A stretch of DNA of 64,000 bases, taken from a virus. Taxonomy: Duplodnaviria; Heunggongvirae; Uroviricota; Caudoviricetes. Positions 8,476-45,655 of this stretch are shown one piece after another. The notes under the pieces were generated by a model that was given only the letters and a program-made list of their open reading frames with translations, was not told where the DNA came from and ran no database searches. The stretch is taken from the IMG/VR virus record IMGVR_UViG_3300009514_000009. One strand, given 5' to 3'. The position numbers and the translations under genes were made by a program. Position 1 is the stretch's first letter. The number at the start of each line of letters is the position of its first letter.

Positions 8476-9165
8476 CTACTCGCCAGCGGGTGCTTTTGAG
8501 CCTTCCTGCCAGCCGACCTTGACCTCGATGCCGAGGCGCTTCGCCACCGCTGCCCAGACGGGCAGGTTGGCCGCGGGGTGGAGGTAGAAGGTCACGTCGA
8601 GGGGCCAGTCGGCATAGTCCTTGGCCCAGCCGAGGGCCACCTCGGCGCACGTCTCGACGGGGCAGCCGTAGACCCCTGCGCTGATGGCGGGGTAGGCGAT
8701 ACTCTTGCAGCCCATGCCCAAGGCCACGAGGGCGGGCATCTTGTAGCACTCGCGCAGTGTCTGACGAGCCAAGTCCTCAGCCCGGACCTCGGTGACGCCG
8801 AACTTCATCTGCATACCCGCGAGGCTGCTCGCTGGGTTGTTGGCGAAGTAGAGGGCGGCATCCGGGTCCGTGGGCCAAACCGGGCCTGCCGTGTGGATGA
8901 CCCAGTGGCAGGGCAGGTTGAACGCGGGAGTTGGGACGGCTCCACCGTTGGGCACACGGATGCTCGTCACGGGCTCCAAGCCCGGCCCGTAGCCCTCTTT
9001 GTGGATGATGGGCAGGAGCTTGCAGGCCTCCCGCAGCCCCGGCCCGGCGGCCTTGTGAATGGCCCCGTCCGCACCCCCACCGCCGAGGCCCTTGTTGTTG
9101 GCTGGGTTGACGATCACGTCGCCGTTGAACGAGCAAATGTCACCTGCGATGAGGGTGATGTTCAT
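8476..9165 (-). CDS. Macro domain protein (ADP-ribose binding and hydrolysis).
   Basis: VNPANNKGLGGGGADGAIHKAAG is the classic macro-domain Gly-rich ADP-ribose pocket. Confidence 0.85.
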   Translation of the reverse strand: MNITLIAGDICSFNGDVIVNPANNKGLGGGGADGAIHKAAGPGLREACKLLPIIHKEGYGPGLEPVTSIRVPNGGAVPTPAFNLPCHWVIHTAGPVWPTDPDAALYFANNPASSLAGMQMKFGVTEVRAEDLARQTLRECYKMPALVALGMGCKSIAYPAISAGVYGCPVETCAEVALGWAKDYADWPLDVTFYLHPAANLPVWAAVAKRLGIEVKVGWQEGSKAPAGE

Positions 9166-9338
9166 GTCTTGAACCTCTTGGCCCGCTTGGGCTTTTCATT
9201 GATCTCGTCGAGCATCCCCCACAACTCGCAGTAGTGCTCGCAGATGGGGCAGGTGCATTCCGGGTTGGGGAGGCACGGAGGCGCGATGGCCTCGATGTTC
9301 TCCAGCTCCGTGATGATGGATTTGCGGGTCCTCGTCAT
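9162..9338 (-). CDS. Small Cys-rich protein.
   Basis: Translation MTRTRKSIITELENIEAIAPPCLPNPECTCPICEHYCELWG. The ORF-track extension upstream is an R-rich artefact. Confidence 0.4.
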   Translation of the reverse strand: MTRTRKSIITELENIEAIAPPCLPNPECTCPICEHYCELWGMLDEINEKPKRAKRFKT

Positions 9339-9601
9339 GGCAAGGCCCGCTCCCGCGTCACGCGGTAGAACTCGTGGGTGATGCGGGAGAAGCCCACTTC
9401 GGCCAGCCAGAGCCCACCCGAGGTGCGCACCTCGCGGCTGATCTCGTGGATGCCTCCGACCTTGTAGATCGTGCATCCGCCGCCGAACTCCTCGGTGGCG
9501 ACCTTCTCGGCCCACTCGTCGAGCTTCACGATGCGAGGGTCGGGCGGGGGCAGGGGCGGCGGTTCCGTCTGATGTCCGAACAGGTTCAGTAGCCAACGCA
9601 T
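9335..9601 (-). CDS. Hypothetical protein.
   Basis: 88 aa, preceded by a motif copy at about 9605-9650. Confidence 0.45.
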   Translation of the reverse strand: MRWLLNLFGHQTEPPPLPPPDPRIVKLDEWAEKVATEEFGGGCTIYKVGGIHEISREVRTSGGLWLAEVGFSRITHEFYRVTRERALP

Positions 9602-9646
9602 GTCGGGCCTCCTCAGCCACTACTGGGAACCGCCACCACTTGAGCC

Positions 9647-10648
9647 CTACGGGGCTGGGGCCGGAGCCGGGGCTGGGGCCGGAGCCGGGGCCGGTTCGGC
9701 GGGTGCTCCGGTCGGCTGCTGCTTCTCCGCGGCCTCCTGAGCCTCCTGAATGCGCTTGAGCAACGCGGCGTCGAGGAGCCCTTGCGGCTGCAACCACTTG
9801 CTGGTGTCGAGCCCGTTGTTGGCCGCGTCGGTGTAGGGGATGAGGAACATATTGTTCGCCCCGTTCGCGGCGTCCTCCATCACGTCCCACTGCCGCCACA
9901 TGATGAGCTGCGGGCTCACGCTGGACGCGAGGATGCGGTTGGCGTCCGCCTGTGCCTTGGCCCTCAGCAGAGACGACTGAGCCTCGACACGGGCGAGAGC
10001 CAGCTTGCCTTCGGCCTCAGCCTTGAGTCGCAGGGCTTCCGCGTGGGCCTCCTTGATCTGCACCTCGCGCTCGGCGGCCTTGATCTCGGCGTTGGTCACC
10101 ACGTCGGGGAAGTCGAGGTTGCCCACCGTGACCCGCTTGACCCTGAAGATGCCACCGGAGGTCTTGGCCATCACAGCCGCCTTGACCTCCTCGATGATCT
10201 GGATGCGTTTCTCGACCAGCTCCTTCCGTGCGCTGTACTTGCTCACGATGCCGCGGGCCGTCTCGTCGGCCACGGGCAGCACGTAGGTCTCGTAGAGCTG
10301 CTGCGCCGTGAACACCTTGTTCTCGCCTGCGGGGATGAGGTTCTCGAAGACGTTGGCGACCTGATCGCCCTCCATGTCCACCGCGGCGAGGATGCCGAGG
10401 GTGAACTTGAAGTTGAGCTTGTCGGCGCACAGCACGTCCATCGGGTGGTCGAACTGCCGGTCGCTCGTCTCCATGAGGTACATCTCGCACCGCCCGAAGC
10501 ACGAGTGGCGACCCGGCTTGAGCAGCTCGCCTTGGAAGCCGCCGGGCTCCCATGTGCGGCCCGTGTGGCCCGCGGGGACGATCTTGTTGCAGCCGGTGGC
10601 CAGCAGGGTGAGGCCCAGCAGGGCCATGAGCAGGATCTTGGGGTTCAT
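9647..10648 (-). CDS. SPFH/band-7 (HflK/C, stomatin, prohibitin-like) lipoprotein.
   Basis: Lipobox LLATGC, an SPFH core, a long coiled-coil and a C-terminal (AP)n tail. Confidence 0.8.
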   Translation of the reverse strand: MNPKILLMALLGLTLLATGCNKIVPAGHTGRTWEPGGFQGELLKPGRHSCFGRCEMYLMETSDRQFDHPMDVLCADKLNFKFTLGILAAVDMEGDQVANVFENLIPAGENKVFTAQQLYETYVLPVADETARGIVSKYSARKELVEKRIQIIEEVKAAVMAKTSGGIFRVKRVTVGNLDFPDVVTNAEIKAAEREVQIKEAHAEALRLKAEAEGKLALARVEAQSSLLRAKAQADANRILASSVSPQLIMWRQWDVMEDAANGANNMFLIPYTDAANNGLDTSKWLQPQGLLDAALLKRIQEAQEAAEKQQPTGAPAEPAPAPAPAPAPAPAP

Positions 10649-14774: not shown

Positions 14775-14776
14775 CT

Positions 14777-16877: not shown

Positions 16878-16887
16878 GGGGGACATC

Positions 16888-22763: not shown

Positions 22764-22837
22764 GGTGTGCCTCTCCTTGGTGTTTCCCCGATGGTGGGGC
22801 GAACACCCTACCCACGTTGAAGGAAGGATGAACCCCC

Positions 22838-23926: not shown

Positions 23927-24876
23927 GGATCATGTCCTCCTGTTGACGCCTCCACTACTGGCCAACGGCAGGATTTGAGCCCCCCTTCACCAACGCGCTC
24001 GGGCGGCAACCCCATCTCGTTGCAGAGCAGGCGGAGATTGATGCCGCGTGCGCGGAGCCAGCGGTCCCACCGCTTCCAATCATTGTCCATACTCTGGCGG
24101 GGTCGCTTGTTGTGTTCTGCGTAGAAGGCCCGGATCTCGGCTCGGGCACGATCCATCGTGCGGTCCAAATCGAGGCCGCCGGGCAGGTCCATCTCGTCGC
24201 AGAGCAGGCGGAGGGTGGTGCTCTGTTGGGTGCGGAGCCAGCAGTCCCACAAGTGCCACTCCTTGTCGATTGTGGTGGGCCGTTTGTTGTGTTCTGCGTA
24301 GAAGGCCCGGATCTCGGCTTTGGCCCGCTCCATCGTGCGGTTGTAGTCCCTGCCGCCCGGCAAGCCCATCTCGTCGCAGAGCTGGCACAGGCTGGTGTCT
24401 CTCTTACGGAGCCAGTCAGCCCATCGCCGCCATTCGACGTTGACATGCTTGGTTGGTCGGGTGCCGTGTTCTGCGTAGAAGGCCCTGATCTCGGCTCTGG
24501 CCCGGCCCATCGTGCGGTCGTAGTCCCTGCTGCCCGACAGGGCCAGCTCGTTGCAGAGCTGGCTGAGACTGGTGCCCTGCCTGTTCAACCAATCGTCCCA
24601 TTGCCGCCATCTTCTACTGGTCGGGACAGTAGGTCGCCTCCCATGCTCATCGTAGTGGTCTTGGATCTCGGCTCGGGCACGGTCTATCGAGCGGTCGTAG
24701 TCCCTGCCGCCCGGCAAGCCCATCTCATCGCAGACGGTGCGGAGGGTGTGTCCCCATCGACCAAGGGTGAGGTTGACCTGACTCCACCAAGAGCTATCCC
24801 CCTTGAGGGGCCTCTCACCGTATTGGTCGAACCAGATCTGGATGCGAGCACGGGCACAGTCTACCGTGAGTCTCAT
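23923..24876 (-). CDS. Tandem-repeat protein made of five ~60 aa repeats.
   Basis: The unit RDYDRTMxRAxAEIRAFYAEHxxRPT...W..W..WLR...SLxQLCDEMGLPGG recurs five times, giving a ~186 bp DNA periodicity. Confidence 0.6.
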   Translation of the reverse strand: MRLTVDCARARIQIWFDQYGERPLKGDSSWWSQVNLTLGRWGHTLRTVCDEMGLPGGRDYDRSIDRARAEIQDHYDEHGRRPTVPTSRRWRQWDDWLNRQGTSLSQLCNELALSGSRDYDRTMGRARAEIRAFYAEHGTRPTKHVNVEWRRWADWLRKRDTSLCQLCDEMGLPGGRDYNRTMERAKAEIRAFYAEHNKRPTTIDKEWHLWDCWLRTQQSTTLRLLCDEMDLPGGLDLDRTMDRARAEIRAFYAEHNKRPRQSMDNDWKRWDRWLRARGINLRLLCNEMGLPPERVGEGGLKSCRWPVVEASTGGHDP

Positions 24877-25679
24877 CCCTTGCGGACTTGGACCGCGAGC
24901 TTGGGCAGGAACTCCTCGGCCTTGGCCCGGATGTGGGTCATCCCGTCCAGCTCACCCGCGTTCGGGTCGATGTTGAACATGGGCACGGCTGACTGGTAGG
25001 CCGCGGTCATCATCATGTCGGTGATCGTCACCGCGAACGAGGTGCCTGCGAAGATGAGCACCGTCATCTGGTCCATGAGCCGCTCGATATGGTCCATGCC
25101 GTAGGCGTAGTGCCCAGAGTAGCTCTCGTCGAACCACAGGACGTGGGCTCGCAGGTACTTCGCGCACAGCGGGCAGCGAGGCACCGTTTCCAAGCACGGA
25201 TTCTTGCGGAACTCGGCGAGCAAACCTTCGTCCCAGTCGATGAGCCCCTTGGGCGGCCCCTTCTCGCAGTAGCGGTTGGTGCAGCGCATGTACCGAGCCG
25301 CACCATGGCACTCGGTGACGTGGCGGCTGCCAGCCTTGAGGTGTAAGCCGTCCACGTTCTGCGTGATCAGGTCGAACCCCCGGTCCTGCGCCTTGTGCCA
25401 CTGCTCGATGTCGGCGATGGCTTGATGCGCAGGGTTGGGCTCGGCTGCACGGCACTTGTCGAACCGGCTCAAGTACCAGCTCCACGACTGGTCCGGGTGC
25501 CGGAGGAAGAAGGCGTTGGTCCCCTTGTCCAGTACGTCCTGCTCCCACACCGCATCAGCCGTTCCTCGGAACGGGGCGATGCCGGAGGCGATGGAGATAC
25601 CCGCCCCGGTCACGAAGACGGCGTGGGAGTTGTCGGCCCTGAACAGCTCCAGCAGTTGCTCGGTGGCAGTCACACTCAC
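24873..25679 (-). CDS. SIR2-family (CobB-like sirtuin) NAD-dependent deacylase / ADP-ribosyltransferase.
   Basis: GAGISIASGIAPFRG, QNVDGLH and a CxxC...CxxC zinc module. GTG start overlaps the upstream TGA. The ORF-track N-terminus is R-rich artefact. Confidence 0.8.
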   Translation of the reverse strand: MSVTATEQLLELFRADNSHAVFVTGAGISIASGIAPFRGTADAVWEQDVLDKGTNAFFLRHPDQSWSWYLSRFDKCRAAEPNPAHQAIADIEQWHKAQDRGFDLITQNVDGLHLKAGSRHVTECHGAARYMRCTNRYCEKGPPKGLIDWDEGLLAEFRKNPCLETVPRCPLCAKYLRAHVLWFDESYSGHYAYGMDHIERLMDQMTVLIFAGTSFAVTITDMMMTAAYQSAVPMFNIDPNAGELDGMTHIRAKAEEFLPKLAVQVRKG

Positions 25680-27216: not shown

Positions 27217-28146
27217 CTACCCCTTGGTCGGCTCGACTGGACCCTCCCCGTAGGGGCCGGTCAGGGTGAGGACGTGCTTCGACTCCTCGTCTGCGGCCCG
27301 CAGGAACGTGCAGTTGGCCTTGGGCTCCCCGTTCCCTACCCAGATCGTCCGACCGCTCAGATTGTGGATGGCCTCGTAGCGCAGCGTGTAGTGGTCGTCT
27401 CGGTCCTCGATGCACACGCATGGCCCGAACCGCTTGGACTCCATCCAGTCGCCGGGCTTGATGGGCAGGGGGGCCTCTGCCGCCGTCTGGTACTTGGCGA
27501 TGATGGCCTCGGCCTTGACCCGCAGCTCGTCGAGGGTGCCGTCGTTGATGATGTGCTCGTCCACGATGGCTTGGAACGATGGCTGGAGTCGGGCCGTCTC
27601 GCTGGCGTGCGTCAGCACCTTGGCCTCGACGAGATCTTCAGGGCGCAGCACCTCGATGATGATGCCGCCGACCGCCTCCACTGCCTCGATGTCCCGCAAG
27701 AAACGGCAGTCCGTGATGAGGGCCACTCCGCGGTGGGCCTCCGCCTCCCGAGCGGCCCGCAGGGCATAGATGGCTGGGAAGGTGGCCTCGGCGAACTCGC
27801 CCCCGAGCTGCTGCATCGCGTGGCGTGGGGTAAGCCCGATGTGCCCGGTCGCACCGCAGTGCTGGCAGTCCGTCTGCTTGTTGAACGGGGGGTCGTTGAA
27901 CTGCGCGCTGTACGGCACCTTGCCGCCGCCTCGGCAGCCTTGGCAGGTGACCGGATACCGCTCGTCGGGCACGTCCTTGAGGTCGCCGTCCGTGTGCTCC
28001 TCGGTCCAGTCGAACAGGTCGCGCAGGTACGCCTTGAGTGGCCCCGCGATCTGAATGCGCTTGACGACCCGTCCCGAGGCTTCCCCCAGCATTGTGGCGA
28101 AGGTGTCCTTTCCAGTGCGGGCGCGGCCCGTAATCCCCAAAATCAT
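27217..28146 (-). CDS. Deoxynucleoside-monophosphate kinase-like P-loop protein (T4 gp1-like N-terminus).
   Basis: MILGITGRARTGKDTFA is a Walker A resembling T4 dNMP kinase. The listed N-terminal extension is spurious. Confidence 0.6.
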   Translation of the reverse strand: MILGITGRARTGKDTFATMLGEASGRVVKRIQIAGPLKAYLRDLFDWTEEHTDGDLKDVPDERYPVTCQGCRGGGKVPYSAQFNDPPFNKQTDCQHCGATGHIGLTPRHAMQQLGGEFAEATFPAIYALRAAREAEAHRGVALITDCRFLRDIEAVEAVGGIIIEVLRPEDLVEAKVLTHASETARLQPSFQAIVDEHIINDGTLDELRVKAEAIIAKYQTAAEAPLPIKPGDWMESKRFGPCVCIEDRDDHYTLRYEAIHNLSGRTIWVGNGEPKANCTFLRAADEESKHVLTLTGPYGEGPVEPTKG

Positions 28147-28148
28147 GC

Positions 28149-29126
28149 TCACGCTCCGAGGACTCGGCTGACCCAGCCGGGCTCCTTCATCTTGGTCCGA
28201 AGCTGGCCACGGTACGTCCGGGCCAGTGCTTGCCAGTGATCGAACATACCCTGATCCCAGTGCTGGCCCACGCTCGCACGGATGAGGGCATCGAGCACCT
28301 TCGGACTCAGGGCGTCCAGCTCCCACGCATCGTTGATGCCGTGCTCACGGAAGTAGCCCGCGTAGCGGCTGGAAGACTTCTTGGCCGGGTACGGCGGCGG
28401 GTTGTACTGCCGGATCTGGTCCATGTTGAGGGCCACCCGGATGAACCGGATTGGCGGGATGTCGAGGCCCCAGACGTTGGCGAGGGTGTCGAGGGTGACC
28501 TCAGCCGACCGCGGGATCTGCCAGCCGTCCGGGTCGTGGTCCCCGAAGTAGATCACGACCGCCTCCTCAATCTCCTCGACCTCGATCTCGTCGCCCTCGT
28601 TGTCCTCCACCACGGCTTGGCTGGTCTGGTACGCCTCTTGGAGCTTCTCCAGCCACTGCCACAAGCTGCTGTGGCTCGGGTAGCCCTTGCAGGCGAAGAA
28701 CCCCACCCCCAAGTCCTTGCAGGGCTTCTCGAAGACGCCTGCGAGGGCCTCCTTCTCGACCCACACGGCGACGTACTTGGGCTGGCCGAACCAGCGGTCC
28801 ACCTCGATGGACCAGTGAGGCACCGCACGCAGGTAGTTCTCGGCCTCCCCCAGCGCAGCCGTCACGTCGATCTTGCACTCGTGCTGCTTCGACGGAGCGG
28901 CATCCCGGCCACGGTCCACGAGGAGGTCCATGTCGAACTGACCCGCGAGCCGGGCGTTGCCCAAGGTGTCGCCCAGCCGCTTGTAGCTCTCATTGGAGTT
29001 CGGGATGAGGGCAGCCTTGACGAGCTGGTAGTAGAGCTGCCGCAGGGTCATGTCGTACCCCTGCGACTGGAAGTCCTCTGCGATGTCGCGGGCTGCGTCC
29101 AGCAGGTCGGCTCGGTCCTGAATCAT
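28149..29126 (-). CDS. Topo VI subunit A / Spo11-like protein (Mini-A): winged helix with an RxxYY tyrosine plus a TOPRIM domain.
   Basis: LRQLYYQLV (catalytic Tyr motif), VWVEKEA, ACKGYPS, and IYFGDHDPDGWQI (TOPRIM DxDxxG). Confidence 0.6.
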   Translation of the reverse strand: MIQDRADLLDAARDIAEDFQSQGYDMTLRQLYYQLVKAALIPNSNESYKRLGDTLGNARLAGQFDMDLLVDRGRDAAPSKQHECKIDVTAALGEAENYLRAVPHWSIEVDRWFGQPKYVAVWVEKEALAGVFEKPCKDLGVGFFACKGYPSHSSLWQWLEKLQEAYQTSQAVVEDNEGDEIEVEEIEEAVVIYFGDHDPDGWQIPRSAEVTLDTLANVWGLDIPPIRFIRVALNMDQIRQYNPPPYPAKKSSSRYAGYFREHGINDAWELDALSPKVLDALIRASVGQHWDQGMFDHWQALARTYRGQLRTKMKEPGWVSRVLGA

Positions 29127-29128
29127 GA

Positions 29129-29380
29129 TCAACTCCCCTTGTGGTCGTGCAGGAGCAACTGCATCCGCAGGTACGCCTTGACCGCGTTGCCCTCGTCTGC
29201 GAGCTGGCCCGAGATGTCCTCGACCTGCCCCAACACCCGGAACAGCATCGTGGCAGCGTTCCCGCACAGCTCCTCGGCAGTGAACGAGCTGGCTTCAACC
29301 ACGCGGCGGACGGCGGCCTCCACCGACATGCCGGACTTGAGATGCTTCCAGATGGCTTCGACTGCTTGCTCGATTGTCAT
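29129..29380 (-). CDS. Hypothetical small protein.
   Basis: Start MTIEQAVEAIWKHLKSG. The upstream part of the listed ORF is R-rich. Confidence 0.4.
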   Translation of the reverse strand: MTIEQAVEAIWKHLKSGMSVEAAVRRVVEASSFTAEELCGNAATMLFRVLGQVEDISGQLADEGNAVKAYLRMQLLLHDHKGS

Positions 29381-29698: not shown

Positions 29699-31630
29699 TC
29701 ACGGGCGGCCTCCCAGACGGTTCCACATCTCGTCGATGCTGATGACCTCGGTGCCGTACTGGCGAGCCTTCTGGGCCTTGCCCGAGGTGCTGTTCGGGTC
29801 CTTCGTCACGAGGATGTCGAGCCCCTTGCTGACGCTCCCCTTGACCGACCCGCCCTGCGACTCGATGGCGGTCACCATCGTGGCGTCACGGAAGCCGGTC
29901 ATGCAGATCGACTTGTCCGAGAAGGGGCCGGTCGCCTTGGCAGCGATGGTGATGTGGGCACGCAGGCTGGCGATGACGCCGCGGTCGAGCAGGTCCCAGA
30001 AGCCGTCCACGAAGGCCTGCGCCTTCGTGTTGCCAACACCGGGGATGCTCGCCACGTCGGACACCTTGGCCTTGCTCATCTTGTTCAGGCTGTCGAGGCC
30101 CGCGTCCACCAGCGTCTTCGCCATCGACCGACCGATGAGCGGGATGCCCAGCGAGCCGATGAAGACGTGCAGCGGCATGGTCGTCGCAGCGTGCAGGTTG
30201 CGGAAGGCCTTGTCGGCGGTCCCGCCGACCTTCCGACCGCCCATGTCCATCGAGGCGACCACGGCGGGGTCGAGGGTGTAGAGGTCGGCGATGCGCTCGA
30301 CCACGCCCGTCTCGCAGAGCATGTCGATGAGGCTCGTGCCGAAGTGCAGCACCCCCACCTTGGCGATCCAACGCTTGATGGCTCCGCTGATCTGCGACGG
30401 GCAGGAGTCCCCGTTCGGGCAGATGAGGTAGGCACCGTCGCGGACCACGGCGGTCTGGCAGTCAGGACACGCGGTCGGGGTGTGCAGAGCCACGCCCCCG
30501 TTGCTCGCCAGCAGGGCTTCGACGTAGGGGATCACGTCGTTGCGGCGGGCGACCATGATGCCGTCGCCAGCAGCGATGGCCAGGGTCCCGGCGTCGCTGC
30601 ACAGCGTCTCGATGTAGTCGATGTTGTGCAGGCTCGCCTTGGAGACGTTGGCCCCGGCGAGGTTCACCGTGTCGAAGTCCGCGACCGGCGTGAGCCGCCC
30701 GGACTTGCCAACCTGCCAGCGAATGGCCCGCAGGGTGGTCGCCTTCTGAGCGTGCGGGAACTTCAGGGCGCGGGCACCGTTGGGGCGCATGTTCGTGTCG
30801 CCCATCGCCTCGCGGGCGTCCCGGTCGTTCACGTCCACGACCAGCCCGTCGATCTCCCAATCGAGCTTGTCCCGCGACTCGTCCACGTACTTGGTGAAGA
30901 TGCGGATGACGGTCGCGAGATCATCGGCGGGGTGGTGCGGCGGGCAGACGAAGCCCATCTGCTCCAGAGCGAGGATCTCGTGGTGCTTGGTGTCCAGCGG
31001 CACCCCATCGGGGAGGTACTGGTAGGCGACCACCGTGAGGTACTGCGCCTTGGCGTAGTCGGTCTGCCGCTTGGCAGTCCCAGCCGCGGTGTTGCGGGGG
31101 TTCGACTCGCCGGGGAAGTGCGCCTTGAACTTGCTCTTGCGGCAGACGATTTCGCCCCGCACGTTCACGTCGTCCGGGCACGTCGGCGGGAGCACTCGCA
31201 CGGCACCTTCCATCAGGAGCACGTTGCGGGTGATGTCTTCGCCCTCGGCCCCGTCTCCGCGGGTGATGGCAGCCACCAGCTTGCGCTGCCGGTACACGAG
31301 GTCGATGGAGATGCCGTCCAGCTTGTGAGTGATGCACACCGGCTTGCCGGGCCACCACGACCGAAGCTCGTCGTGCCCGTCGCCCGAGGCGGCGTCGAAC
31401 TGGCACTTCTTCAAGCTGCCCATCGGGATGGCATGGGCGGCCTTGGGCCACGACCCGCCCGTGGGGGCAGGGGCACCGATCTTCTGGAGGTGCGGATGGT
31501 TGGGGTCGAGCGCCCGCAGCTCGTCTTCCAGCTTGTCGTAGGCTGCGTCCGACATGATCGGGTTGCCGTTGCGGTAGGCGAGGTTCGCCTCATGCAGCCG
31601 CTTGGCAAGGTCTGTGATCTTGGTGCTCAT
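29699..31630 (-). CDS. ligA: NAD+-dependent DNA ligase.
   Basis: 643 aa. An N-terminal adenylation region (KLDG-type) with HhH and BRCT-like C-terminal parts. The NAD-binding Ia motif AAYDKLEDELRAL is present. Confidence 0.9.
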   Translation of the reverse strand: MSTKITDLAKRLHEANLAYRNGNPIMSDAAYDKLEDELRALDPNHPHLQKIGAPAPTGGSWPKAAHAIPMGSLKKCQFDAASGDGHDELRSWWPGKPVCITHKLDGISIDLVYRQRKLVAAITRGDGAEGEDITRNVLLMEGAVRVLPPTCPDDVNVRGEIVCRKSKFKAHFPGESNPRNTAAGTAKRQTDYAKAQYLTVVAYQYLPDGVPLDTKHHEILALEQMGFVCPPHHPADDLATVIRIFTKYVDESRDKLDWEIDGLVVDVNDRDAREAMGDTNMRPNGARALKFPHAQKATTLRAIRWQVGKSGRLTPVADFDTVNLAGANVSKASLHNIDYIETLCSDAGTLAIAAGDGIMVARRNDVIPYVEALLASNGGVALHTPTACPDCQTAVVRDGAYLICPNGDSCPSQISGAIKRWIAKVGVLHFGTSLIDMLCETGVVERIADLYTLDPAVVASMDMGGRKVGGTADKAFRNLHAATTMPLHVFIGSLGIPLIGRSMAKTLVDAGLDSLNKMSKAKVSDVASIPGVGNTKAQAFVDGFWDLLDRGVIASLRAHITIAAKATGPFSDKSICMTGFRDATMVTAIESQGGSVKGSVSKGLDILVTKDPNSTSGKAQKARQYGTEVISIDEMWNRLGGRP

Positions 31631-32786: not shown

Positions 32787-33053
32787 ATGCCCAAGCAAGA
32801 CCTCGTGAAGATCTGGACCAAGAGGGCCAACGACGCCCTCGCGGGCAAGACCATCAGGGCCGCCCGCTACCTCACCCGCAAGGAGGCTGACGACCTCGGG
32901 TGGAGGTGCCTCGTGCCCGTCATCGAGCTGGACGACGGCAGCCTGCTGTTCCCCTCCCGCGACGATGAAGGCAACGACGGTGGAGCCCTGTTCGGCCAGA
33001 CGGGCAAGGGCGAAGAACTGACCCTCCCGGTCATCAACCTGCGACTTCTGTGA
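32787..33053 (+). CDS. Hypothetical protein.
   Basis: MPKQDLVKIWTKRAND... Confidence 0.5.
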   Translation: MPKQDLVKIWTKRANDALAGKTIRAARYLTRKEADDLGWRCLVPVIELDDGSLLFPSRDDEGNDGGALFGQTGKGEELTLPVINLRLL

Positions 33054-33529
33054 GGCACGACATGAGCGACCGAATCACCTTCGCCAACACCCTGCTGAAG
33101 ACCGACGATGGCACCTACCGGGCCGGGGACGTGATCCGCAACTCGACCGGGCGGGACGACCCGTGGAGCCAGTGCATCATCTTGGGCTTCTCCAGACCCG
33201 ACAAGTACAACGACGTGTACGTCCGGCTCGCTCGACCCTACGCCTACGCTTCCTGCGTCGGCACCACGACTCCGGGCGTCCTCACGGGCGTGGAGGAGTT
33301 CGAGATCCCGGCCAGCAAGCTGCGCTACGAGACGGTCCTGACCACAGGTGACAACGGCCCGAGGATCAGCGGCTCCATCGGCCACGGACGCATCGGCCAG
33401 TACGACTCTGAGTGCATCGACCTGCGAACCGAGGTCGATGACTGCGCCTGCCCCGGCTGCGGCTGCAAGCCCGGCGAGGGGCGCACTTCCGGCTGCACCC
33501 ACCCGGACGGTTGTGGATACCGCGGGTAG
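33050..33529 (+). CDS. Hypothetical Cys-rich protein.
   Basis: C-terminal CACPGCGCKPGEGRTSGCTHPDGCGY. Confidence 0.5.
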   Translation: MRHDMSDRITFANTLLKTDDGTYRAGDVIRNSTGRDDPWSQCIILGFSRPDKYNDVYVRLARPYAYASCVGTTTPGVLTGVEEFEIPASKLRYETVLTTGDNGPRISGSIGHGRIGQYDSECIDLRTEVDDCACPGCGCKPGEGRTSGCTHPDGCGYRG

Positions 33530-33624: not shown

Positions 33625-35178
33625 ATGGCAGCGAAGATCATCGAGAGCGTCACCCTCAACTTCACCGACCTCACCGGAGCCAAGACCGGCTGCACCACGC
33701 TGGGCAGCAACAAGTTCTGGAAGGGCTGGGTCGAAGACAACGGGGACGGCACTGGCAACTTCTGCTGCCAGTGGGGATCTACCGGCACCGCTGGGAGCAC
33801 CAACGGCTCCAAGCACGGCATCCCCCTAGCGACCGCGATCAAGAAGTTCAAATCCAAGCGCAATGAGAAGCTCAGGAAGGAGTACACCGAGCTTCAGGTC
33901 CGCGACGACGCGGAGGAAGCCGCCAAGCAGGCCGCCGCGGGCGTCGTGCCTGTCGCCGCGCCCAAGGCCACCATGGCCCCCAAGGCCGTCGTGAGCCGCA
34001 CGTTCCACCCGGACGTGAGCCGCCTGCTCGGCACCATCTACGGCTCGACCGCCAACACGGTTCGTGGTGGCCTCTCGGCGCAGGCCGGGTCCACCGACGA
34101 GAACCCCATCGGCAACCTGAGCGACAGCCAGCTCAACGTCGGCGGTGGCATCCTCGACGAGATCGAAGCCCTGCTCCAGCAGCAGTTCGGGCGGGAGGAC
34201 GCGACCAACAAGACCATGACCCTGCCGCTGGGCCGCGACGGGCTGCCCACGGCCCGCGTCATCGAGCTGACCAACGAGTACATGAGCAACGTCCCCCGGA
34301 GCATCGCCCGCGAGGACCGGGGCCGACGCAACCTGCACAAGCTCGTCGTGAGCAGCTACGAGCGGTTGGAGGAACAGCGCAAGTTCCTCCAGCTCCTCCG
34401 CGACGCCCACGTCTCCAAGGCCGTGTTCGCGCAGGCTGCCCAGCAGACCTCGACCGGCAACAAGGAGGTCGTGTGGTACGACGGGCTCGGCTGCGACATC
34501 AAGGCCCTGTCCCCGAGCGACCCCGGCTACAAGTTCGTGGCCGAAGTGTTCAACACTGCGCAGTCCAAGCACAACGCCAACTGGTTCCGCGGTGGCCGCT
34601 GCATCCTGCGGCTGGTCCGGGTCTACAAGTTCACCCGGCAGGGCACCGAGACCGCCTTCGACGCCTACGGCAAGACCGTGACCGCGAAGCGCGGGGCGAC
34701 CGGGCAGGTCTTCGCGTGGCACGGGACGCGGACGCCGAACCTGCTGGGCATCAGCAAGTCCGGGCTCCTCATGCCCGAGAACCTGCCCCGAGGCGTCCAC
34801 ATCAGCGGCAAGGCCTTCGGGCGCGGCATCTACCATGCCCCCGCGTGGAATGCGACGGGCACGGCGAAGGTCGGCCAGCACAAGACGGACGGCACCAACG
34901 GTGCCCTGAAGTCGATGAACTACACGGGCGTCGGCGGGGCCTACTACGGCGGCAACGACCGGGGCAACGCCTTCATGTACCTGCAAGAGCTGGCTCTCGG
35001 CACCCCCGAGGTCCGGCACTCGGCCTGCTGGGACCAGCACCGCCCCAAGGGGTTCCCGCAGAACGACTGGATCTACGCCAACGCGGGCGGCTGCCACAGC
35101 CTCACCCACGATGAGGTCGTCACCTTCGACGAGCGGGCGCAGATCTTCCGCTACCTCGTCGAGGTAGCGGTCGGCTGA
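33625..35178 (+). CDS. PARP-like ADP-ribosyltransferase with an N-terminal WGR domain.
   Basis: WGR region SNKFWKGWVE...CCQWGSTGTAG. The catalytic region has FAWHGTRTPNLLGISKSGL (H-G-S/T), GKAFGRGIYHA (Tyr), and HDEVVTFDERAQIFRYLVEV (catalytic Glu region). Confidence 0.8.
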   Translation: MAAKIIESVTLNFTDLTGAKTGCTTLGSNKFWKGWVEDNGDGTGNFCCQWGSTGTAGSTNGSKHGIPLATAIKKFKSKRNEKLRKEYTELQVRDDAEEAAKQAAAGVVPVAAPKATMAPKAVVSRTFHPDVSRLLGTIYGSTANTVRGGLSAQAGSTDENPIGNLSDSQLNVGGGILDEIEALLQQQFGREDATNKTMTLPLGRDGLPTARVIELTNEYMSNVPRSIAREDRGRRNLHKLVVSSYERLEEQRKFLQLLRDAHVSKAVFAQAAQQTSTGNKEVVWYDGLGCDIKALSPSDPGYKFVAEVFNTAQSKHNANWFRGGRCILRLVRVYKFTRQGTETAFDAYGKTVTAKRGATGQVFAWHGTRTPNLLGISKSGLLMPENLPRGVHISGKAFGRGIYHAPAWNATGTAKVGQHKTDGTNGALKSMNYTGVGGAYYGGNDRGNAFMYLQELALGTPEVRHSACWDQHRPKGFPQNDWIYANAGGCHSLTHDEVVTFDERAQIFRYLVEVAVG

Positions 35179-35284: not shown

Positions 35285-36181
35285 ATGAGCACCATCGAAA
35301 CCAGCCCCGACCTCGGCACCAACGAGTGCGCCGCCTCCCCCTTCACCAGCGTGCAGGGCGCGGCAGACGCCGCGCAGGACGCCTCCGAGGGAGCCCGGTT
35401 CCTGACCGAGTTCTGGATCGAGCAGGGGGTGTGCTTCACCTCCGGCCACGTCGTGAACGCCCTCCGGGAGGCCCGCGGCAAGAGCCTCATGGTCAACCAG
35501 CGCCCCACCGGGCAGGCCGTGCAGGACTACTTCTCGTCCGGCGACATGCCCGGCTTCGACGACGGCGTGGGCGGCTGCGAGCGTCCGCTGCGCAAGCTGC
35601 GCAGCACCACCCGGACCGACACCCGGACCCCCGTGGGCACCGAGGTCTTCGTCTACGGCCCCAGCGAGGACGAGATCGACTGCTTCGAGTTCGAGCTGAA
35701 CATCGCCGAGGCCCCCATGGTGGACGACGGGTGCGGCGGGCAGACCAGCGCGGCCACGGCCCTGCTGAACGCCACCCCGACCACCCCGCAGGGCGCGGCC
35801 AACGCCTCGCCCATCCCAGCGGTCCAGCCCAGCGGCACGGTCGCCGTCGCCAACGGCAAGATGGTCCCCGGCAACCCGCTGGCGGTCATGCACCAGAGCG
35901 GCAACCAGACCCCGCGGCTGTGCATCCCCCGCATCGCGTTTGAGGCTCTGGCCTTTGAGACGGGCGAGCCGGTCACGGGTGGTCAGCCGGTCTACGTCGT
36001 CTTCAACGGCGACACCCTGACCATCTCGCAGGACCCGGCCTCGGGCGGGCAGGCCTGCAACCCGACCACCGACAGGCTCCGCCTGCACCTGAACGTGCCC
36101 GGCAACCACCCGGTCGGCACCGAGTTCGATATCCTCGTCGGCAGCGCGCTGACCATCGACCTCGGCAACCCCAAGTCCTGA
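35285..36181 (+). CDS. Hypothetical protein.
   Basis: 298 aa, with its own motif copy at 35194-35284. Confidence 0.55.
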   Translation: MSTIETSPDLGTNECAASPFTSVQGAADAAQDASEGARFLTEFWIEQGVCFTSGHVVNALREARGKSLMVNQRPTGQAVQDYFSSGDMPGFDDGVGGCERPLRKLRSTTRTDTRTPVGTEVFVYGPSEDEIDCFEFELNIAEAPMVDDGCGGQTSAATALLNATPTTPQGAANASPIPAVQPSGTVAVANGKMVPGNPLAVMHQSGNQTPRLCIPRIAFEALAFETGEPVTGGQPVYVVFNGDTLTISQDPASGGQACNPTTDRLRLHLNVPGNHPVGTEFDILVGSALTIDLGNPKS

Positions 36182-36226: not shown

Positions 36227-36268
36227 GAAGGCCCCCGCTGGCAACCCCGGCGGGGGCCTTCATCTTTT
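36227..36268. terminator. Bidirectional intrinsic terminator hairpin between convergent genes.
   Basis: GAAGGCCCCCGC-tggcaacccc-GCGGGGGCCTTC (12 bp stem) followed by ATCTTTT. Confidence 0.5.
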
Positions 36269-42930: not shown

Positions 42931-42960
42931 GCACCCTACAAGCAGAGGGCCATAGAACGA

Positions 42961-43377
42961 TCAGAGCAGCTTCAGTTCGCCCGTGATGGCGTCGATGGCC
43001 TCGGCGTCAGCCGGGCCGATGGCAATGCAGGTTGGGGTCTTGACCCCGTGGAACTCCGTCTTGCCCGCATCTTCGATGAGCGCACAGGGCAAGTTCGCAG
43101 CCATCGCCTGCTGATGCAGACGGAGCAGCTCCTCCTCGGACTTCACCTGCACACAGACCTTGGTGAACAGCCCGAAGACCCACTTCTCCTCCTCACGAGT
43201 GAGCAGGGGGATTCGCAGTTCCGGTGGAGCCCCTACATCCGCCGGGGACCGGATGACCGGGTAGTGCGCCTGCGCTCGGTCGAAGAACACCTTCATGCTC
43301 GCGTGCGCCCCTTGGGCGATCATCTTCCCCTTGCGCATCCCAAGGTCGGTTCTCATCACGAGGACCTGCTTGATCAT
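42961..43377 (-). CDS. Peptidyl-tRNA hydrolase, PTH2 family.
   Basis: MIKQVLVMRTDLGMRKGKMIAQGAHAS matches the PTH2 signature. Confidence 0.7.
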   Translation of the reverse strand: MIKQVLVMRTDLGMRKGKMIAQGAHASMKVFFDRAQAHYPVIRSPADVGAPPELRIPLLTREEEKWVFGLFTKVCVQVKSEEELLRLHQQAMAANLPCALIEDAGKTEFHGVKTPTCIAIGPADAEAIDAITGELKLL

Positions 43378-43616
43378 CGTGAGGCCTCCGTAGGAGGCCA
43401 CTGGATGTATATGCCCGTATAGTCGTGGTAGCAATCGGGGCAGCGGTCGTCGGGATGAACCATCTCTGGCAGCCTCCTGATGCGCATGTGGCCCTTGGGC
43501 AGCTCGGTGATGCCACAGCGGTAAGGGCCTCTTACGTCCCCGATGTGGGTGATGTGACCCTTCCCTTTGCCAATGTCCTTCGGGGGCTCCTCCCAGAACG
43601 CCGGGTCCAGTGGCAT
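43374..43616 (-). CDS. Protein of the MPLxPxFWEE family (80 aa).
   Basis: Begins MPLDPAFWEEPP. Cys/His-rich C-terminus (DRCPDCYHDY). Confidence 0.5.
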   Translation of the reverse strand: MPLDPAFWEEPPKDIGKGKGHITHIGDVRGPYRCGITELPKGHMRIRRLPEMVHPDDRCPDCYHDYTGIYIQWPPTEASR

Positions 43617-43766: not shown

Positions 43767-43838
43767 TTGTCCTCCGTCGTTCACCTTTACTACTCGACAC
43801 CGCGGAGAATTGAGCCCCGTGGCGAAAAGATCGCGGGT

Positions 43839-44328: not shown

Positions 44329-44354
44329 CCAGAACAGGACGCTGGGAGAACACC

Positions 44355-44630
44355 ATGAGCCACCGAATACGTGAGATCACCGACGACCAGTGCCAGTGGT
44401 TCGCCGACGACATGGCAGCCCTCGACCAAGAGCTGGGTCGCGCCCTGAGCCGCCACACCAGCTTCGCTGAGAGCGTCTGGCTTGGCGGCGACCAGAAGGC
44501 CGACAACACAGAGGTTGGCCCACAGCGCACGACCAAGGCCATCGCCCTTCTGCGGGAAGCTCGCAAGCTGATCAGCAGGGCCGACCATGAGGTCGCCATG
44601 TTCCGAGCAGTCGGTGACCCGCCCGTCTAG
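44355..44630 (+). CDS. Hypothetical protein.
   Basis: 91 aa. Confidence 0.45.
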   Translation: MSHRIREITDDQCQWFADDMAALDQELGRALSRHTSFAESVWLGGDQKADNTEVGPQRTTKAIALLREARKLISRADHEVAMFRAVGDPPV

Positions 44631-44926
44631 TCTTCCTCGGGCGGGTAGCGGAACGTCGGAGTCCCCTCCCCCATCCACGCCCCAGAGGTGTTGTAGTCGA
44701 AGTGCTCCACCGCATCTTCGTAGTCGCACCCGTCCAGCATGATGCCCTCGATGCACTTCTCTGCATCGTACACGGCCACGTAGCAGCCGCTCGTGCGGGG
44801 CCAGCGGTCATCCGGCTCGTTGGTCACGTCCACCAGCGCGTCGCCGAACATGAGCCGGGGCTCCAGCAGCAAAGCCTCGGGGTTCAGCTCGTGCAGGCGG
44901 GCAAGAATCTCTGCGGGTGTGCTCAT
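44627..44926 (-). CDS. Hypothetical protein.
   Basis: Start MSTPAEILARLHELNPEAL. Convergent overlap with the 44355 gene. Confidence 0.45.
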   Translation of the reverse strand: MSTPAEILARLHELNPEALLLEPRLMFGDALVDVTNEPDDRWPRTSGCYVAVYDAEKCIEGIMLDGCDYEDAVEHFDYNTSGAWMGEGTPTFRYPPEED

Positions 44927-45165
44927 CGCGTTCGTTCTCCCACCAAGTCCAGCTCGTAGTTCCAGTAGGGGGCCTCCGTCTTGCCGTGCTTGACCCAAAC
45001 CAGGACTGTGCCCTCATCCTCGTCGCACGGCTCGCAGGCTATGACTTTACCCATCACCGGGGCTCGGCGGTTGGCGAGGTGCTCCGGGCCACACAGCATC
45101 CCAGTGGTGTTGCGGAGGGCCAGCACCCGGACGATGTGGCCGATGAGGACATCCTTACCCCGCAT
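44923..45165 (-). CDS. Hypothetical protein.
   Basis: 80 aa. ATGA coupling. Confidence 0.45.
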   Translation of the reverse strand: MRGKDVLIGHIVRVLALRNTTGMLCGPEHLANRRAPVMGKVIACEPCDEDEGTVLVWVKHGKTEAPYWNYELDLVGERTR

Positions 45166-45655
45166 AAGCAGCCTCCATCAAGCCTGCAAGCTCGCACAGC
45201 GTGCGCGTCGCCACGGCGTACCGGGCGGCCCAACGGCCAAGGCCGTCAAGGTCGATCTGACCCGTAGACAAGGACCCGCGACAGAGGATGGCGTACTCGG
45301 CGTAAGCCTTGTCCACACCGCCCTCCGGCCACGGCTCTGCATAGCCCGTCACGGCGATGACCAGCTCGGCTCCGTTGAAGGTCTGCTGAGCACCGAGGGC
45401 CATCTGCACGGCCACGTTGGAGGAGACGCAGTTGCACGACTTGGCCCTCTCGCGGTCCACCCCGAGCAGAGCGACCTTGGCGTCGATGGTGTAGGCGACG
45501 ATGCCACCTCGCAGGTAGGCCGAGCTGCCTGAAGTGTCTGCAAGGGCACTGGCGATCATCCCGGCTGTCAGGCTCTCGGCTGTGGCGACCCCCAGCCCAT
45601 GTTCGAGGGCGAGCTGATGGATGGTGGCGAGAGCTGCTTGGCGGTTGGGGATCAT
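45155..45655 (-). CDS. CinA C-terminal domain / PncC-like NMN amidohydrolase.
   Basis: ATAESLTAGMIASALADTSGSSAYLRGGIVAY is the CinA/PncC signature. Confidence 0.75.
   Translation of the reverse strand: MIPNRQAALATIHQLALEHGLGVATAESLTAGMIASALADTSGSSAYLRGGIVAYTIDAKVALLGVDRERAKSCNCVSSNVAVQMALGAQQTFNGAELVIAVTGYAEPWPEGGVDKAYAEYAILCRGSLSTGQIDLDGLGRWAARYAVATRTLCELAGLMEAAYAG

Follow-up and report, generated by a model that had tools for sequence, protein, structure and literature searches.

The window analysed here is the whole 64-kb stretch of viral DNA. Pfam searches of it recovered the domain-bearing ORFs at the coordinates given by the first-pass annotation, with matches far beyond chance. The presence of all six domains was confirmed. 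The encoded proteins are a WGR-PARP, a macro domain of MacroD type, a Zn-sirtuin, LigA, a member of the CinA family and a further WGR protein, with catalytic motifs mostly intact. The PARP, WGR, Macro, SIR2 and CinA profiles all matched, the second WGR domain scoring below the gathering score. The interval originally proposed for this set ended at 45655 and thereby left out its own sixth gene, at 60677-61699. The features considered are the following.

8476..9165, minus strand: MacroD/YmdB-type macro domain protein, 229 aa (Pfam Macro E 4.9e-28)
24873..25679, minus strand: class III (CobB/SIRT5/Sir2-Af1-like) Zn-sirtuin, 268 aa (Pfam SIR2 E 2.4e-28 over ORF 24873-26021)
27217..29267, minus strand: dNMP kinase-like gene and phage "topoisomerase-like" gene (phrog_6247), a replication/nucleotide block adjoining LigA
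29699..31630, minus strand: LigA, NAD+-dependent DNA ligase, 643 aa (Pfam adenylation, OB, Zn, HhH and BRCT domains)
33050..33529, plus strand: small Cys-rich ORF immediately 5' of PARP, a variable partner gene
33625..35178, plus strand: PARP, 517 aa (WGR ~aa 9-90, helical regulatory domain ~aa 150-277, ART catalytic domain ~aa 327-517)
35285..36181, plus strand: conserved ORFan, 298 aa, 3' of PARP on the same strand, matching neither Pfam nor PHROG
36227..36261, plus strand: terminator-like GC-rich hairpin followed by a T-run (15-bp stem, 12 G-C pairs; from a consensus scan only)
45155..45655, minus strand: single-domain CinA/PncC-family protein, 166 aa, with a non-canonical active site
58001-59800, minus strand: PAS histidine kinase (Pfam PAS, HisKA, HATPase_c)
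59695-60117, minus strand: stand-alone receiver protein (Response_reg 6e-23; located by phmmer)
60677..61699, minus strand: second WGR protein, 340 aa (WGR, conserved YPxGL...FGWG linker and four-helix bundle, no catalytic domain)

Relatives of PARP, the macro protein and the second WGR protein lie on IMG/VR viral contigs of 126-536 kb, and the window comes from a huge-phage genome (at least 109 kb). An origin in a bacterial chromosome, a megaplasmid or another element carrying cellular NAD+ housekeeping genes is hardly credible. Such a reading could draw on the lack of any virion gene in the 64-kb window, on the ubiquity in bacteria of LigA, CobB-like, YmdB-like and PncC-like proteins, on the binning of one PARP-bearing relative (L011) in a bacterial MAG, and on megaplasmids that carry distant WGR-PARPs. 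However, the relatives are viral-classified contigs, phage genes are common to L011 and the window, and the cellular homologues are just 35-48% identical. Genes in the window are also dense, short and mostly ORFans, with HNH homing endonucleases and PHROG matches among them. The host is probably a high-GC bacterium, possibly a member of the Myxococcota. The window also encodes proteins of host-manipulation type, namely a Bax-inhibitor, SPFH, a dual-specificity phosphatase, PTH2, GNAT, HU and a two-component system.

The three PARP domains each scored above the Pfam gathering score (WGR 3.5e-9, PARP_reg 5.2e-9, PARP 3.4e-8), and a phmmer search of the PDB matched PARP1 catalytic fragments. Residues H366-G367-T368, Y403, Y433 and E497 are invariant among 37 homologues. 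Foldseek matched the AlphaFold model (pLDDT 83) best to human PARP1 WGR-CAT and to PARP2 in complex with DNA breaks (E 3e-21). The claimed PARP fold thus stands, with an intact H-Y-E triad and a predicted structure like PARP1/2; at this level of motif and model, the results show what would be a bona fide, intact clade-1 (PARP1-3-like) ADP-ribosyl polymerase of eukaryotic style. The arginine of the W-G-R signature is missing in all 37 phage homologues, which read WG[S/P/A]TG, whereas myxobacterial PARPs retain YGRVG; the relay from DNA to the catalytic domain may therefore differ. Identity of ~60% persists among phages of 46-66% GC whose flanking genes have diverged beyond recognition, indicating a strongly constrained protein. 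Full-length WGR PARP relatives (~300 proteins) were found solely on metagenomic huge-phage contigs. They form a clade with at least 54% identity within it and at most 45% to cellular PARPs, the closest of which (42-45%, same three domains) all come from Myxococcota. The rarity attributed to this architecture was borne out: no record among 50,697 deposited phage genomes covered at least 80% of the phage PARP.

Downstream of PARP, orthologues of the 298-aa ORFan were found near PARP in three relatives (L016, 95%; L005, 73%; L011, 36%). The ORFan carries no PARG signature, and the terminator-like hairpin that follows it would close a PARP-ORFan unit. The Cys-rich ORF upstream has no Pfam match; homologues precede PARP in L005 (43%) and L011 (56%), and none does in L016. 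LigA is complete, scoring 379.6 against NCBIfam PRK07956 (cutoff 369), with the adenylation lysine K103 in a KLDG motif. In L016 (95%) and L005 (70%) an orthologue sits 2 kb from PARP, and L011 gave a short partial match (18% of the query, 50% identity). The adjoining block (Pfam DNMK E 3e-10; phrog_6247 E 4e-71) has tblastn homologues in 79 phage genomes, and the order runs dNMP kinase, phrog_6247 protein, LigA, PARP. Synteny of dNMP kinase, LigA and PARP extends to L016 (PARP 85%) and L005/L006 (73%), and partially to L011 (61%). More distant PARP loci are flanked by genes for DNA pol A, DnaB, primase, ThyX, RNR and dNMP kinase. LigA was found within 10 kb of PARP in none of four distant PARP phages; the PARP-LigA adjacency may be inherited within one sub-lineage from a common ancestor and have no functional meaning.

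The macro fold was likewise supported. The best PDB matches of this protein are Oceanobacillus MacroD, E. coli YmdB and human MacroD1, and alignment to them showed the motifs NxxxxxxGGGGxDGAIH and GVYG intact; N20, G28-G31, D33, H37 and G164-Y166 are invariant among 24 phage homologues. The sirtuin, 16 kb away, matched Sir2-Af1 (5e-31) and SIRT5 (6e-28) and has GAGISxxSGI, TQNVDGLH, the catalytic HG, four Cys and YxxR. NCBIfam labels it an NAD-dependent protein deacylase, below cutoff, and its nearest cellular homologues belong to Myxococcota. Inspection of start codons upheld the shorter coordinates first given for both the sirtuin and CinA. The start codon of the sirtuin is GTG 25679, which overlaps, as GTGA, the stop codon of the 133-aa gene before it (25676-26077); that gene has a 99% identical orthologue in L016. 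The sirtuin itself is absent from the syntenic site in L016, L005 and L009, including relatives with PARP identities of 85% and 73%, and some relatives keep macro without sirtuin. It occupies a hypervariable slot.

The CinA-family protein (Pfam E 6.3e-26 over ORF 45155-45697) starts at ATG 45655, preceded by an RBS-like GAAGGAAG. Its description as NMN deamidase-like was right as to family, the score against TIGR00199 PncC_domain being 89.3 (cutoff 68.9). PncC-type enzymes yield NaMN, which still requires host NadD and NadE. Aligned to 2A9S, the protein retains P-I (Ser), P-II (GSS) and the Y and K of P-III, but N60 is replaced by Ile, P-IV reads NCVS and P-VI reads TGYAEPWPE. Judged by the published consensus (PMC3855486), it departs from blocks P-III, P-IV and P-VI that define active NMN deamidases, and the deviant residues are kept in the L005 orthologue.

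For the second WGR protein (Pfam E 5.9e-4), the domain is confirmed at the profile level only. A profile of its 38-sequence family matched the PARP3 WGR domain in the PDB (E 6e-5), hhalign against the phage PARP WGR gave a probability of 91%, and the top structural matches of its model were weak ones to PARP1/2/3 WGR domains (E 8e-3 to 0.1). Homologues of the kinase and the receiver lie 1-3.6 kb downstream of its homologue in five phage lineages (L068/069, L070, L071, L073 and L075). The gene thus belongs to a conserved two-component module and not to ADP-ribose metabolism; we know of no NAD+ chemistry performed by a WGR domain alone.

Could these genes form an integrated toolkit, as the first-pass annotation suggested, that writes ADP-ribose marks (PARP, SIR2), reads and erases them (macro) and recycles products (CinA, LigA), mainly against NAD+-depleting defences such as Thoeris, DSR or SIR2-HerA? 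They do share a single genome. PARP and a MacroD-type macro gene occur together on at least six metagenomic contigs, paired by their identical lengths, and on three of the five PARP-bearing IMG/VR contigs, one 67,895-bp contig has PARP, macro and SIR2, and breakdown of immune signals derived from ADPr has been suggested as a role of macro domains (PMC7824862, PMC9503650). However, the genes are scattered over 53 kb in separate units, lying 8-27 kb apart and differing in strand and transcription unit; SIR2 is missing from the closest relatives, CinA is atypical, and the second WGR sits in a two-component module. With 56% of jumbo phages carrying a macro domain regardless (PMC9503650), the PARP-macro co-occurrence, which is not above this baseline, is little informative. 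A screen of the ~115 ORFs of the window for ADP-ribose/NAD+ enzyme families found no PARG, ARH, Nudix, NAMPT, NMNAT, PRPS-like, PnuC or NadR protein and no NAD+-synthesis enzyme; the components of the NARP1-3 counter-defences are therefore absent from the window. Of the five enzymes, four use up NAD+ instead of replenishing it, and the proposed management of NAD+ pools was not supported. Co-occurrence of the genes is real, yet does not exceed what is expected of a jumbo phage, and NAD+/ADP-ribose networks and PARP-like genes in such phages are already published. The reading as one coordinated toolkit is only partly supported and, in its anti-defence form, decidedly unlikely. The best explanation, held at even confidence, is that the NAD+-using genes are separate and were independently acquired and inherited.

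For PARP itself, the best reading, with about an equal chance of being right or wrong, is a DNA-break-activated enzyme that would act in the phage replication/repair block beside LigA. It is modelled on PARP1/2/3 and on the Herpetosiphon and C. difficile PARPs, bacterial WGR-PARPs being DNA-activated and PAR-making (PMC5966428, PMC4245714). During replication or recombination of the phage DNA, or once it is packaged, WGR would bind its nicks or 5'-phosphorylated ends and so relieve the autoinhibition that the helical domain exerts; the H-Y-E site would then move ADP-ribose from NAD+ onto PARP itself and nearby proteins. The modification would mark or organise break sites, which LigA would seal. 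With no PARG in the window, both poly- and mono-ADP-ribosylation are possible. The MacroD-type hydrolase may remove protein-proximal ADP-ribose as well as O-acetyl-ADP-ribose made by sirtuins; the sirtuin of the window is probably a recent host-like insertion acting in lysine deacylation. CinA may represent a conserved divergent subfamily of uncertain substrate, the NMN that LigA gives off being the candidate that suggests itself; PncC has been tied to the relief of LigA inhibition by NMN (PMC3855486). The second WGR protein would be a non-catalytic nucleic-acid sensor wired to the phage two-component system, not to ADP-ribosylation.

Two other roles for PARP were weighed. Acting like T4 Alt/ModA/ModB, but adding chains, it could ADP-ribosylate host RNA polymerase, nucleoid or translation proteins and so redirect the cell, the macro domain curbing collateral modification of phage proteins. 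Iyer et al. proposed this very role for PARP-like genes found in a few jumbo phages (PMC7824862), and the window is rich in genes of host-manipulation type. Nevertheless, a WGR and an autoinhibitory helical domain are the architecture of a DNA-break-activated PARP, unlike the constitutive, often virion-packaged phage ARTs, and the gene is located in a replication block, not among early genes; we consider host takeover unlikely. Alternatively, PARP could ADP-ribosylate terminal DNA phosphates, capping phage genome ends or nicks against host exonucleases or marking host DNA, with the MacroD-type enzyme reversing the modification before ligation or packaging. PARP3 mono-ADP-ribosylates phosphorylated dsDNA ends, which MACROD2, TARG1, PARG and ARH3 reverse (PMC5725667); the phage PARP has a minimal PARP2/3-like architecture and co-occurs with a MacroD-type hydrolase and LigA. 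But PARP activity on DNA is so far an in vitro observation, and extrapolation from PARP3/PARP2 is uncertain because the WGR motif is altered, which leaves this role very unlikely.

Among known systems, NARP1 (Adps+Namat), NARP2 (NAMPT+NMNAT) and NARP3 (PnuC+NadR) resemble the window in having phage genes that act on NAD+ metabolites, but their component families were not found here. SirTM-macro systems (Rack et al. 2015; Streptomyces phage Moab type) also unite a sirtuin and a macro domain in one element; theirs are two-gene systems, whereas the pair in the window is 16 kb apart and its sirtuin has class III deacylase features. As here, the network of Iyer, Burroughs, Anantharaman and Aravind (2021/2022) combines ART, macro, sirtuin and LigA in one large phage genome. 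Our sirtuin is a cellular-type class III deacylase unpaired with the macro gene, unlike those of that survey, which belong to a phage RNA-repair clade or a HerA-linked type; CinA and WGR are not mentioned in the jumbo-phage survey. PARP-like proteins are known from Xanthomonas XacN1/Xoo-sp13, Klebsiella FBKp34, Stenotrophomonas CM1, Aeromonas Aeh1 and Cellulophaga phi4:1. These phages and the "NAD-jumbo phages" of Li et al. 2024 carry an H-Y-E PARP-family ART with LigA and other NAD+ users (PMC4245714, PMC7824862, PMC11662467). The deposited phage proteins match with 26-32% identity, and only in the helical and catalytic parts or just the catalytic one. Human PARP2/PARP3 and the WGR-HD-ART core of PARP1 agree with the phage PARP in domain order, predicted fold and catalytic triad, although identity is 16-20% and the phage protein has no zinc fingers, BRCT, N-terminal extension or WGR Arg. 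Uncharacterised Myxococcota PARPs (Paraliomyxa miuraensis, Polyangia and Nannocystaceae MAGs) reach 42-45% full-length identity. They score higher on the Pfam models, keep the WGR Arg and lie among chromosomal housekeeping genes, in contrast to the replication block that holds the phage gene. To our knowledge, bacteria with a working PAR metabolism also carry a DUF2263-type PARG, which was not seen in the window. The PARPs of Herpetosiphon aurantiacus and Clostridioides difficile CD160, like those of Myxococcota, have in common with the phage PARP the three-domain order and the H-Y-E triad, and the Herpetosiphon and C. difficile enzymes are DNA-activated and produce PAR (PMC5966428).

The PARP gene (517 aa) is the strongest feature of the window. 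The first-pass annotation had assembled six genes into a single toolkit for NAD+ and ADP-ribose metabolism; their domain calls were borne out by Pfam, the second WGR protein requiring profile evidence. These genes and the ORFan downstream of PARP are:

8476..9165, minus strand, macro domain protein
24873..25679, minus strand, SIR2
29699..31630, minus strand, LigA
33625..35178, plus strand, PARP
35285..36181, plus strand, 298-aa ORFan
45155..45655, minus strand, CinA
60677..61699, minus strand, second WGR protein

In the PARP, the Pfam WGR, PARP_reg and PARP domains all scored above their gathering scores. The WGR domain, which precedes the catalytic region, reached 37.1 bits (cutoff 22), and its model (aa 4-104) consists of a beta-sheet and a helix that Foldseek aligns with PARP1/2 WGR-CAT. 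The helical regulatory domain (HD/PARP_reg) reached 36.7 bits (cutoff 26.8), with helices predicted at aa 167-310. The HGT, GxGIY, NY and HDE motifs match H862-G-S, Y896, Y907 and E988 of PARP1; the corresponding residues, aligned by motif, are H366, Y403, Y433 and E497, invariant in 37/37 homologues, which share 54-85% identity with the window protein. The best PDB matches of the AlphaFold model (pLDDT 83) were human PARP1 WGR-CAT and PARP2 on DNA breaks (E 3e-21). Loss of the fold or triad, named beforehand as the observation that would overturn the call, was not seen: both are intact, so the PARP is real. With a WGR domain, a helical regulatory domain and an ART fold carrying the H-Y-E triad, sequence and model place it as a probable clade-1 (DNA-dependent, PARP1-3-like) enzyme. 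The Arg of the W-G-R signature was found in 0/37 phage-clade PARPs, which have W50-G51-[S/P/A] instead; unlike them, myxobacterial PARPs keep this Arg in YGRVG.

The exact architecture is common to about 300 metagenomic proteins, and the PARP is still about 60% identical across phages of GC 46-66% whose other genes have drifted too far apart to be recognised. A search of 185,579 species genomes detected only four cellular relatives, all in Myxococcota (42-45% identity, same three domains), where the genes sit in ordinary chromosomal contexts; a fifth match, locus L011, is a mis-binned phage contig. The phage clade obtains lower Pfam scores than the myxobacterial PARPs, which, together with the replaced Arg in all 37 sequences, suggests transfer from bacteria to phages followed by specialisation. 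The full-length form occurs in no deposited phage genome: proteins of XacN1, Xoo-sp13, FBKp34 and CM1 match the helical/catalytic part only, with 26-32% identity to the window PARP. An exact look-up of the window PARP returned no record.

Homologues of the window PARP, macro and second WGR genes are carried by IMG/VR viral contigs of 126-536 kb and by metagenomic contigs of 280-536 kb. One neighbour of LigA falls in the phage family phrog_6247 (E 4e-71) and was matched by tblastn in 79 phage genomes, and the PARP gene of distant relatives is flanked by genes for DNA polymerase A, DnaB, primase, ThyX, RNR, PhoH and type I-C Cas proteins. Given these large viral contigs, the phrog_6247 and HNH genes and the replication-gene flanks, we treated the window as part of a huge-phage genome. 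Its G+C content is 62-69%, its genes are short, tightly packed and for the most part ORFans, and virion genes are absent from the 64 kb. Among GenBank phages, megablast gave no match for the 7 kb around PARP, and tblastn with an 894-aa ORF of the window gave none among deposited phage genomes. Further features of the window are:

9647-10648, minus strand, SPFH/Band-7 protein
14055-14840, minus strand, Bax-inhibitor-1 family membrane protein
22034-22480, minus strand, dual-specificity protein phosphatase
22539-22997, minus strand, HU-like DNA-binding protein (Bac_DNA_binding)
42961-43434, minus strand, archaeal/eukaryotic-type PTH2
49202-49792, thymidylate kinase
49794-50735, minus strand, HNH homing endonuclease (several PHROG families), among nucleotide-metabolism genes and adjoining the thymidylate kinase
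53364-54008, minus strand, PD-(D/E)XK endonuclease with an HTH domain, among nucleotide-metabolism genes
56491-56567, minus strand, tRNA with anticodon CUA (ARAGORN; amber suppressor, labelled tRNA-Pyl)

The SPFH/Band-7, Bax-inhibitor-1, phosphatase and PTH2 genes make up a "cell-physiology" set unusual for phages. An HU gene is also found in the related locus L009, there beside a ParA-like ATPase gene. The tRNA-CUA raised the question of TAG recoding, which was unsupported: TAG is still the stop of 27 of the 80 predicted genes, and recoding across the genome is therefore not indicated. Of four distant loci (L001, L003, L004 and L011), covered for 10 kb to each side of PARP, one has Cas8c/Csd1, Cas5d and Cas3 (type I-C) as well as a Cas12f/TnpB-like gene, and an extra ORF showed a Pfam PARP-catalytic match (E 3e-10) that phmmer and a clade HMM failed to locate.

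All six genes of the proposed toolkit are present, but they are dispersed, and how well each is conserved varies from gene to gene. Distances of 8-27 kb separate the NAD+-related genes, which are divided between the two strands and among separate units; PARP belongs to a short plus-strand island (about 32.5-36.2 kb) closed by a strong hairpin. Gene order was compared with L016 (PARP 85% identical, 332-kb contig) and with L005/L009 (73%, 369-377 kb). Kept in both are DUF3268, small genes, dNMP kinase, phrog_6247, LigA, PARP, the 298-aa ORFan, methyl/glycosyl-transferases, a PG-binding protein and PTH2. The macro gene (in L009/L010) and CinA (in L005) were confirmed in the 73% relative only, both positions being outside the 21.5-kb L016 locus; matching of contigs by size gave no macro entry for the two closest large PARP contigs. 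In four distant PARP phages (GC 46-59%), no surroundings are shared, and macro, SIR2, CinA and LigA are absent within 10 kb of PARP. The 298-aa ORFan was considered as a PARG and rejected, having no Pfam or PHROG match and no GGG-x6-8-QEE signature. The methyltransferase/glycosyltransferase cluster (36260-41904, minus strand) comprises four or five overlapping ORFs, and its counterpart in L005 (13913-18328) is one polyprotein of 1,471-1,544 aa; the split could reflect frameshifts, real fission or assembly errors.

SIR2 and the next two genes occupy a hypervariable slot (23456-25679, minus strand), bordered by a conserved 133-aa gene on one side and by the gene for the DUF3268 zinc ribbon on the other. 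Besides SIR2, the slot encodes two proteins, one of 317 aa that weakly matches a homing-endonuclease repeat and one of 156 aa. In the relatives it is filled by unrelated small genes, of 212 aa in L016 (1307-1945) and 73 aa in L005/L009 (824-1045 in L005), so SIR2 is a recent insertion. Identity to L016 reaches 99% in the flanking 133-aa gene but only 85% in PARP, which suggests mosaic recombination.

The window gave no support to the claim that the element manages NAD+ pools. Among about 115 window ORFs, no Pfam family was found for PARG, ARH, Nudix, NAMPT, NMNAT, PRPS-like, PnuC or NadR, and PARG of the canonical or DUF2263 type was also lacking within 10 kb of PARP in the four distant relatives. 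Likewise, the Pfam analysis of the window detected none of the gene pairs of the known phage NAD+ reconstitution pathways, NARP1 (Adps+Namat), NARP2 (NAMPT+NMNAT) and NARP3 (PnuC+NadR); as no family for NAD+ synthesis or uptake is present, these routes are unrepresented there. PARP and a MacroD-type macro domain occur together on at least six metagenomic contigs (equated by identical size, an incomplete matching) and on 3 of the 5 PARP-bearing IMG/VR contigs. Because macro domains are found in 56% of jumbo phages (PMC9503650), this co-occurrence is no excess. PARP contigs of 354,807 and 399,398 bp have no macro or SIR2 entry under the same incomplete size matching of records. Scattered NAD+-related domains are the norm in jumbo phages and amount to one system only given evidence of linkage; the present result corrects such an over-reading.

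The macro domain protein is of the MacroD/YmdB type, defined by a macro fold with the motifs Nx(6)GG[V/L/I]D...AIH and G[V/I][Y/F]G. Both catalytic motifs are present, as VNPANNKGLGGGGADGAIH and ISAGVYG; they align to Oceanobacillus MacroD and YmdB and are invariant in 24 phage homologues. In NCBIfam it matches O-acetyl-ADP-ribose deacetylase best, with a score under the equivalog cutoff. Used singly as queries against IMG/VR, the macro, SIR2 and CinA sequences returned zero matches, and scans with alignments as the query gave matches where these had given none.

By its motifs, SIR2 is a class III sirtuin (CobB/SIRT5/Sir2-Af1), with a GAGxS Rossmann motif (GAGISIASGI), TQNxD (ITQNVDGLH), the catalytic His (ECHGA), a Cys4 zinc site (C-x4-C...C-x2-C) and a YxxR pocket (YLSR). 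The start is GTG 25679, as first annotated; a 382-aa reading fused to the upstream ORF was discarded, the upstream gene being in another frame and stopping in a GTGA overlap. Its nearest cellular relatives are Myxococcota deacylases (45-48% identity). SirTM-macro systems need adjacent, co-inherited genes; in the window SIR2 and macro are 16 kb apart, and relatives keep macro yet lack SIR2. Other candidate partners are encoded at:

50886-51458, plus strand, DUF3228
52201-52599, plus strand, HAD_SAK_2 ("Swiss-army-knife" RNA-repair phosphatase)
56030-56452, minus strand, GNAT acetyltransferase (Pfam Acetyltransf_1, E 2.6e-11 in a pooled scan; located by phmmer with RimI)

The acetyltransferase and the sirtuin, whose genes are 30 kb apart, are a possible acyl-lysine writer/eraser pair. 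DUF3228 and HAD_SAK_2 may form an RNA-repair module such as Iyer et al. link to phage sirtuins, here 25 kb from SIR2. In L002, L004 and L011, PARP likewise has a DUF3228 homologue in its vicinity.

LigA appears complete, with an adenylation domain bearing KLDG (K103), an OB fold, a Zn finger, HhH and BRCT. The N-terminal Ia domain of NAD+ specificity (Nlig-Ia) has a weak Pfam match (E 9.4e-4, 20.2 bits vs cutoff 27), equally weak in the L016 orthologue. CinA, annotated as NMN deamidase-like, passes the PncC-domain model, but such activity should not be taken for granted. Compared with the blocks of active NMN deamidases (P-I AESCTGG with Ser31, P-II G[A/S]S, P-III YxNxxK, P-IV G[A/V]VS, P-VI [S/T]G[I/V]AGPxGG), it retains Ser31 in P-I (AESLTAG), P-II (GSS) and the Tyr and Lys of P-III (YTIDAK), where Asn60 is replaced by Ile; P-IV (NCVS) and P-VI (TGYAEPWPEGG) deviate from the active form. 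The altered positions are those that distinguish active from inactive family members (PMC3855486). As the L005 orthologue has the same changes, CinA represents a selected, divergent subfamily, distinct rather than decayed. NMN released by LigA inhibits the ligase, an effect that PncC-type enzymes are believed to relieve (PMC3855486); such relief would be the most economical role for CinA, but with its altered active site no more than a possible one.

The second WGR protein falls below the Pfam cutoff as a single sequence. Its family profile matches the PARP3 WGR (E 6e-5), and hhalign pairs it with the phage PARP WGR (91% probability); this profile evidence confirms the WGR fold, and the structure model, whose best matches are WGR domains, agrees with it. 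The protein is catalytically empty. Directly downstream are two genes that form a phage-encoded two-component system:

58001-59800, minus strand, PAS histidine kinase
59695-60117, minus strand, stand-alone receiver

This arrangement recurs in five huge-phage lineages (L068-L075), with kinase and receiver homologues 1-3.6 kb downstream of the WGR homologue. The gene belongs to a kinase-receiver module and not to an ADP-ribose toolkit, a WGR domain alone being uninformative about NAD+. With a kinase nearby, the helical bundle of this protein was considered as an HPt domain, an idea dropped because the 38 homologues share no conserved His and only generic bundles matched. The WGR-kinase-receiver module gives a lead of its own on signalling encoded by phages.

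The proposed mechanism builds on what was observed: the domains present, catalytic residues that are intact, the fold as predicted, and the place of PARP next to LigA and nucleotide kinases. Its steps of DNA binding, helical unfolding and ADP-ribose transfer are modelled on PARP1/2/3 and on the Herpetosiphon aurantiacus and Clostridioides difficile enzymes HaPARP and CdPARP (PMC5966428, PMC4245714). By analogy, the PARP WGR would bind nicks or 5'-P ends, upon which the helical domain would unfold; ADP-ribose would then be placed on PARP itself and on adjacent proteins at intermediates of phage replication, recombination or packaging, and the breaks would be sealed by LigA. The MacroD enzyme could strip terminal ADP-ribose and OAADPr. 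An alternative is that PARP helps to take over the host, as T4 ARTs do, a role proposed for jumbo-phage PARPs (PMC7824862). Another is that the phage PARP caps the ends of DNA, an in vitro activity of PARP3 (PMC5725667). The broadest version of the break-sensing mechanism strikes us as unlikely: a widespread huge-phage clade (contigs to 536 kb, GC 46-66%) would have a near-core break-sensing PARP with a remodelled WGR, running with MacroD and LigA a eukaryote-like cycle of ADP-ribose signalling or DNA-end capping, and the second WGR protein may feed DNA status into the two-component system. Since the closest cellular kin are found in Myxococcota, phage and myxobacterial PARPs might, on this reading, also help to explain how the eukaryotic PARP1-3 clade arose.

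Phage PARPs with the full DNA-sensor architecture have so far not been characterised. This compact (517 aa), conserved and abundant clade (about 300 members) offers a test of break-triggered ADP-ribosylation in a bacterial virus, and allows asking what PARP does without chromatin. Much of the setting is already published: jumbo phages have been described with an NAD+-ADPr network (PMC7824862, PMC9503650), a few phages with PARP homologues (PMC4245714), and "NAD-jumbo phages" with LigA as well as PARP1-like genes (PMC11662467); WGR-PARPs are also on record from bacteria (PMC5966428). Against this background, interest centres on a phage PARP clade that is full-length, strongly conserved and modified in its WGR, on its affinity to Myxococcota, and on the WGR-kinase-receiver module.
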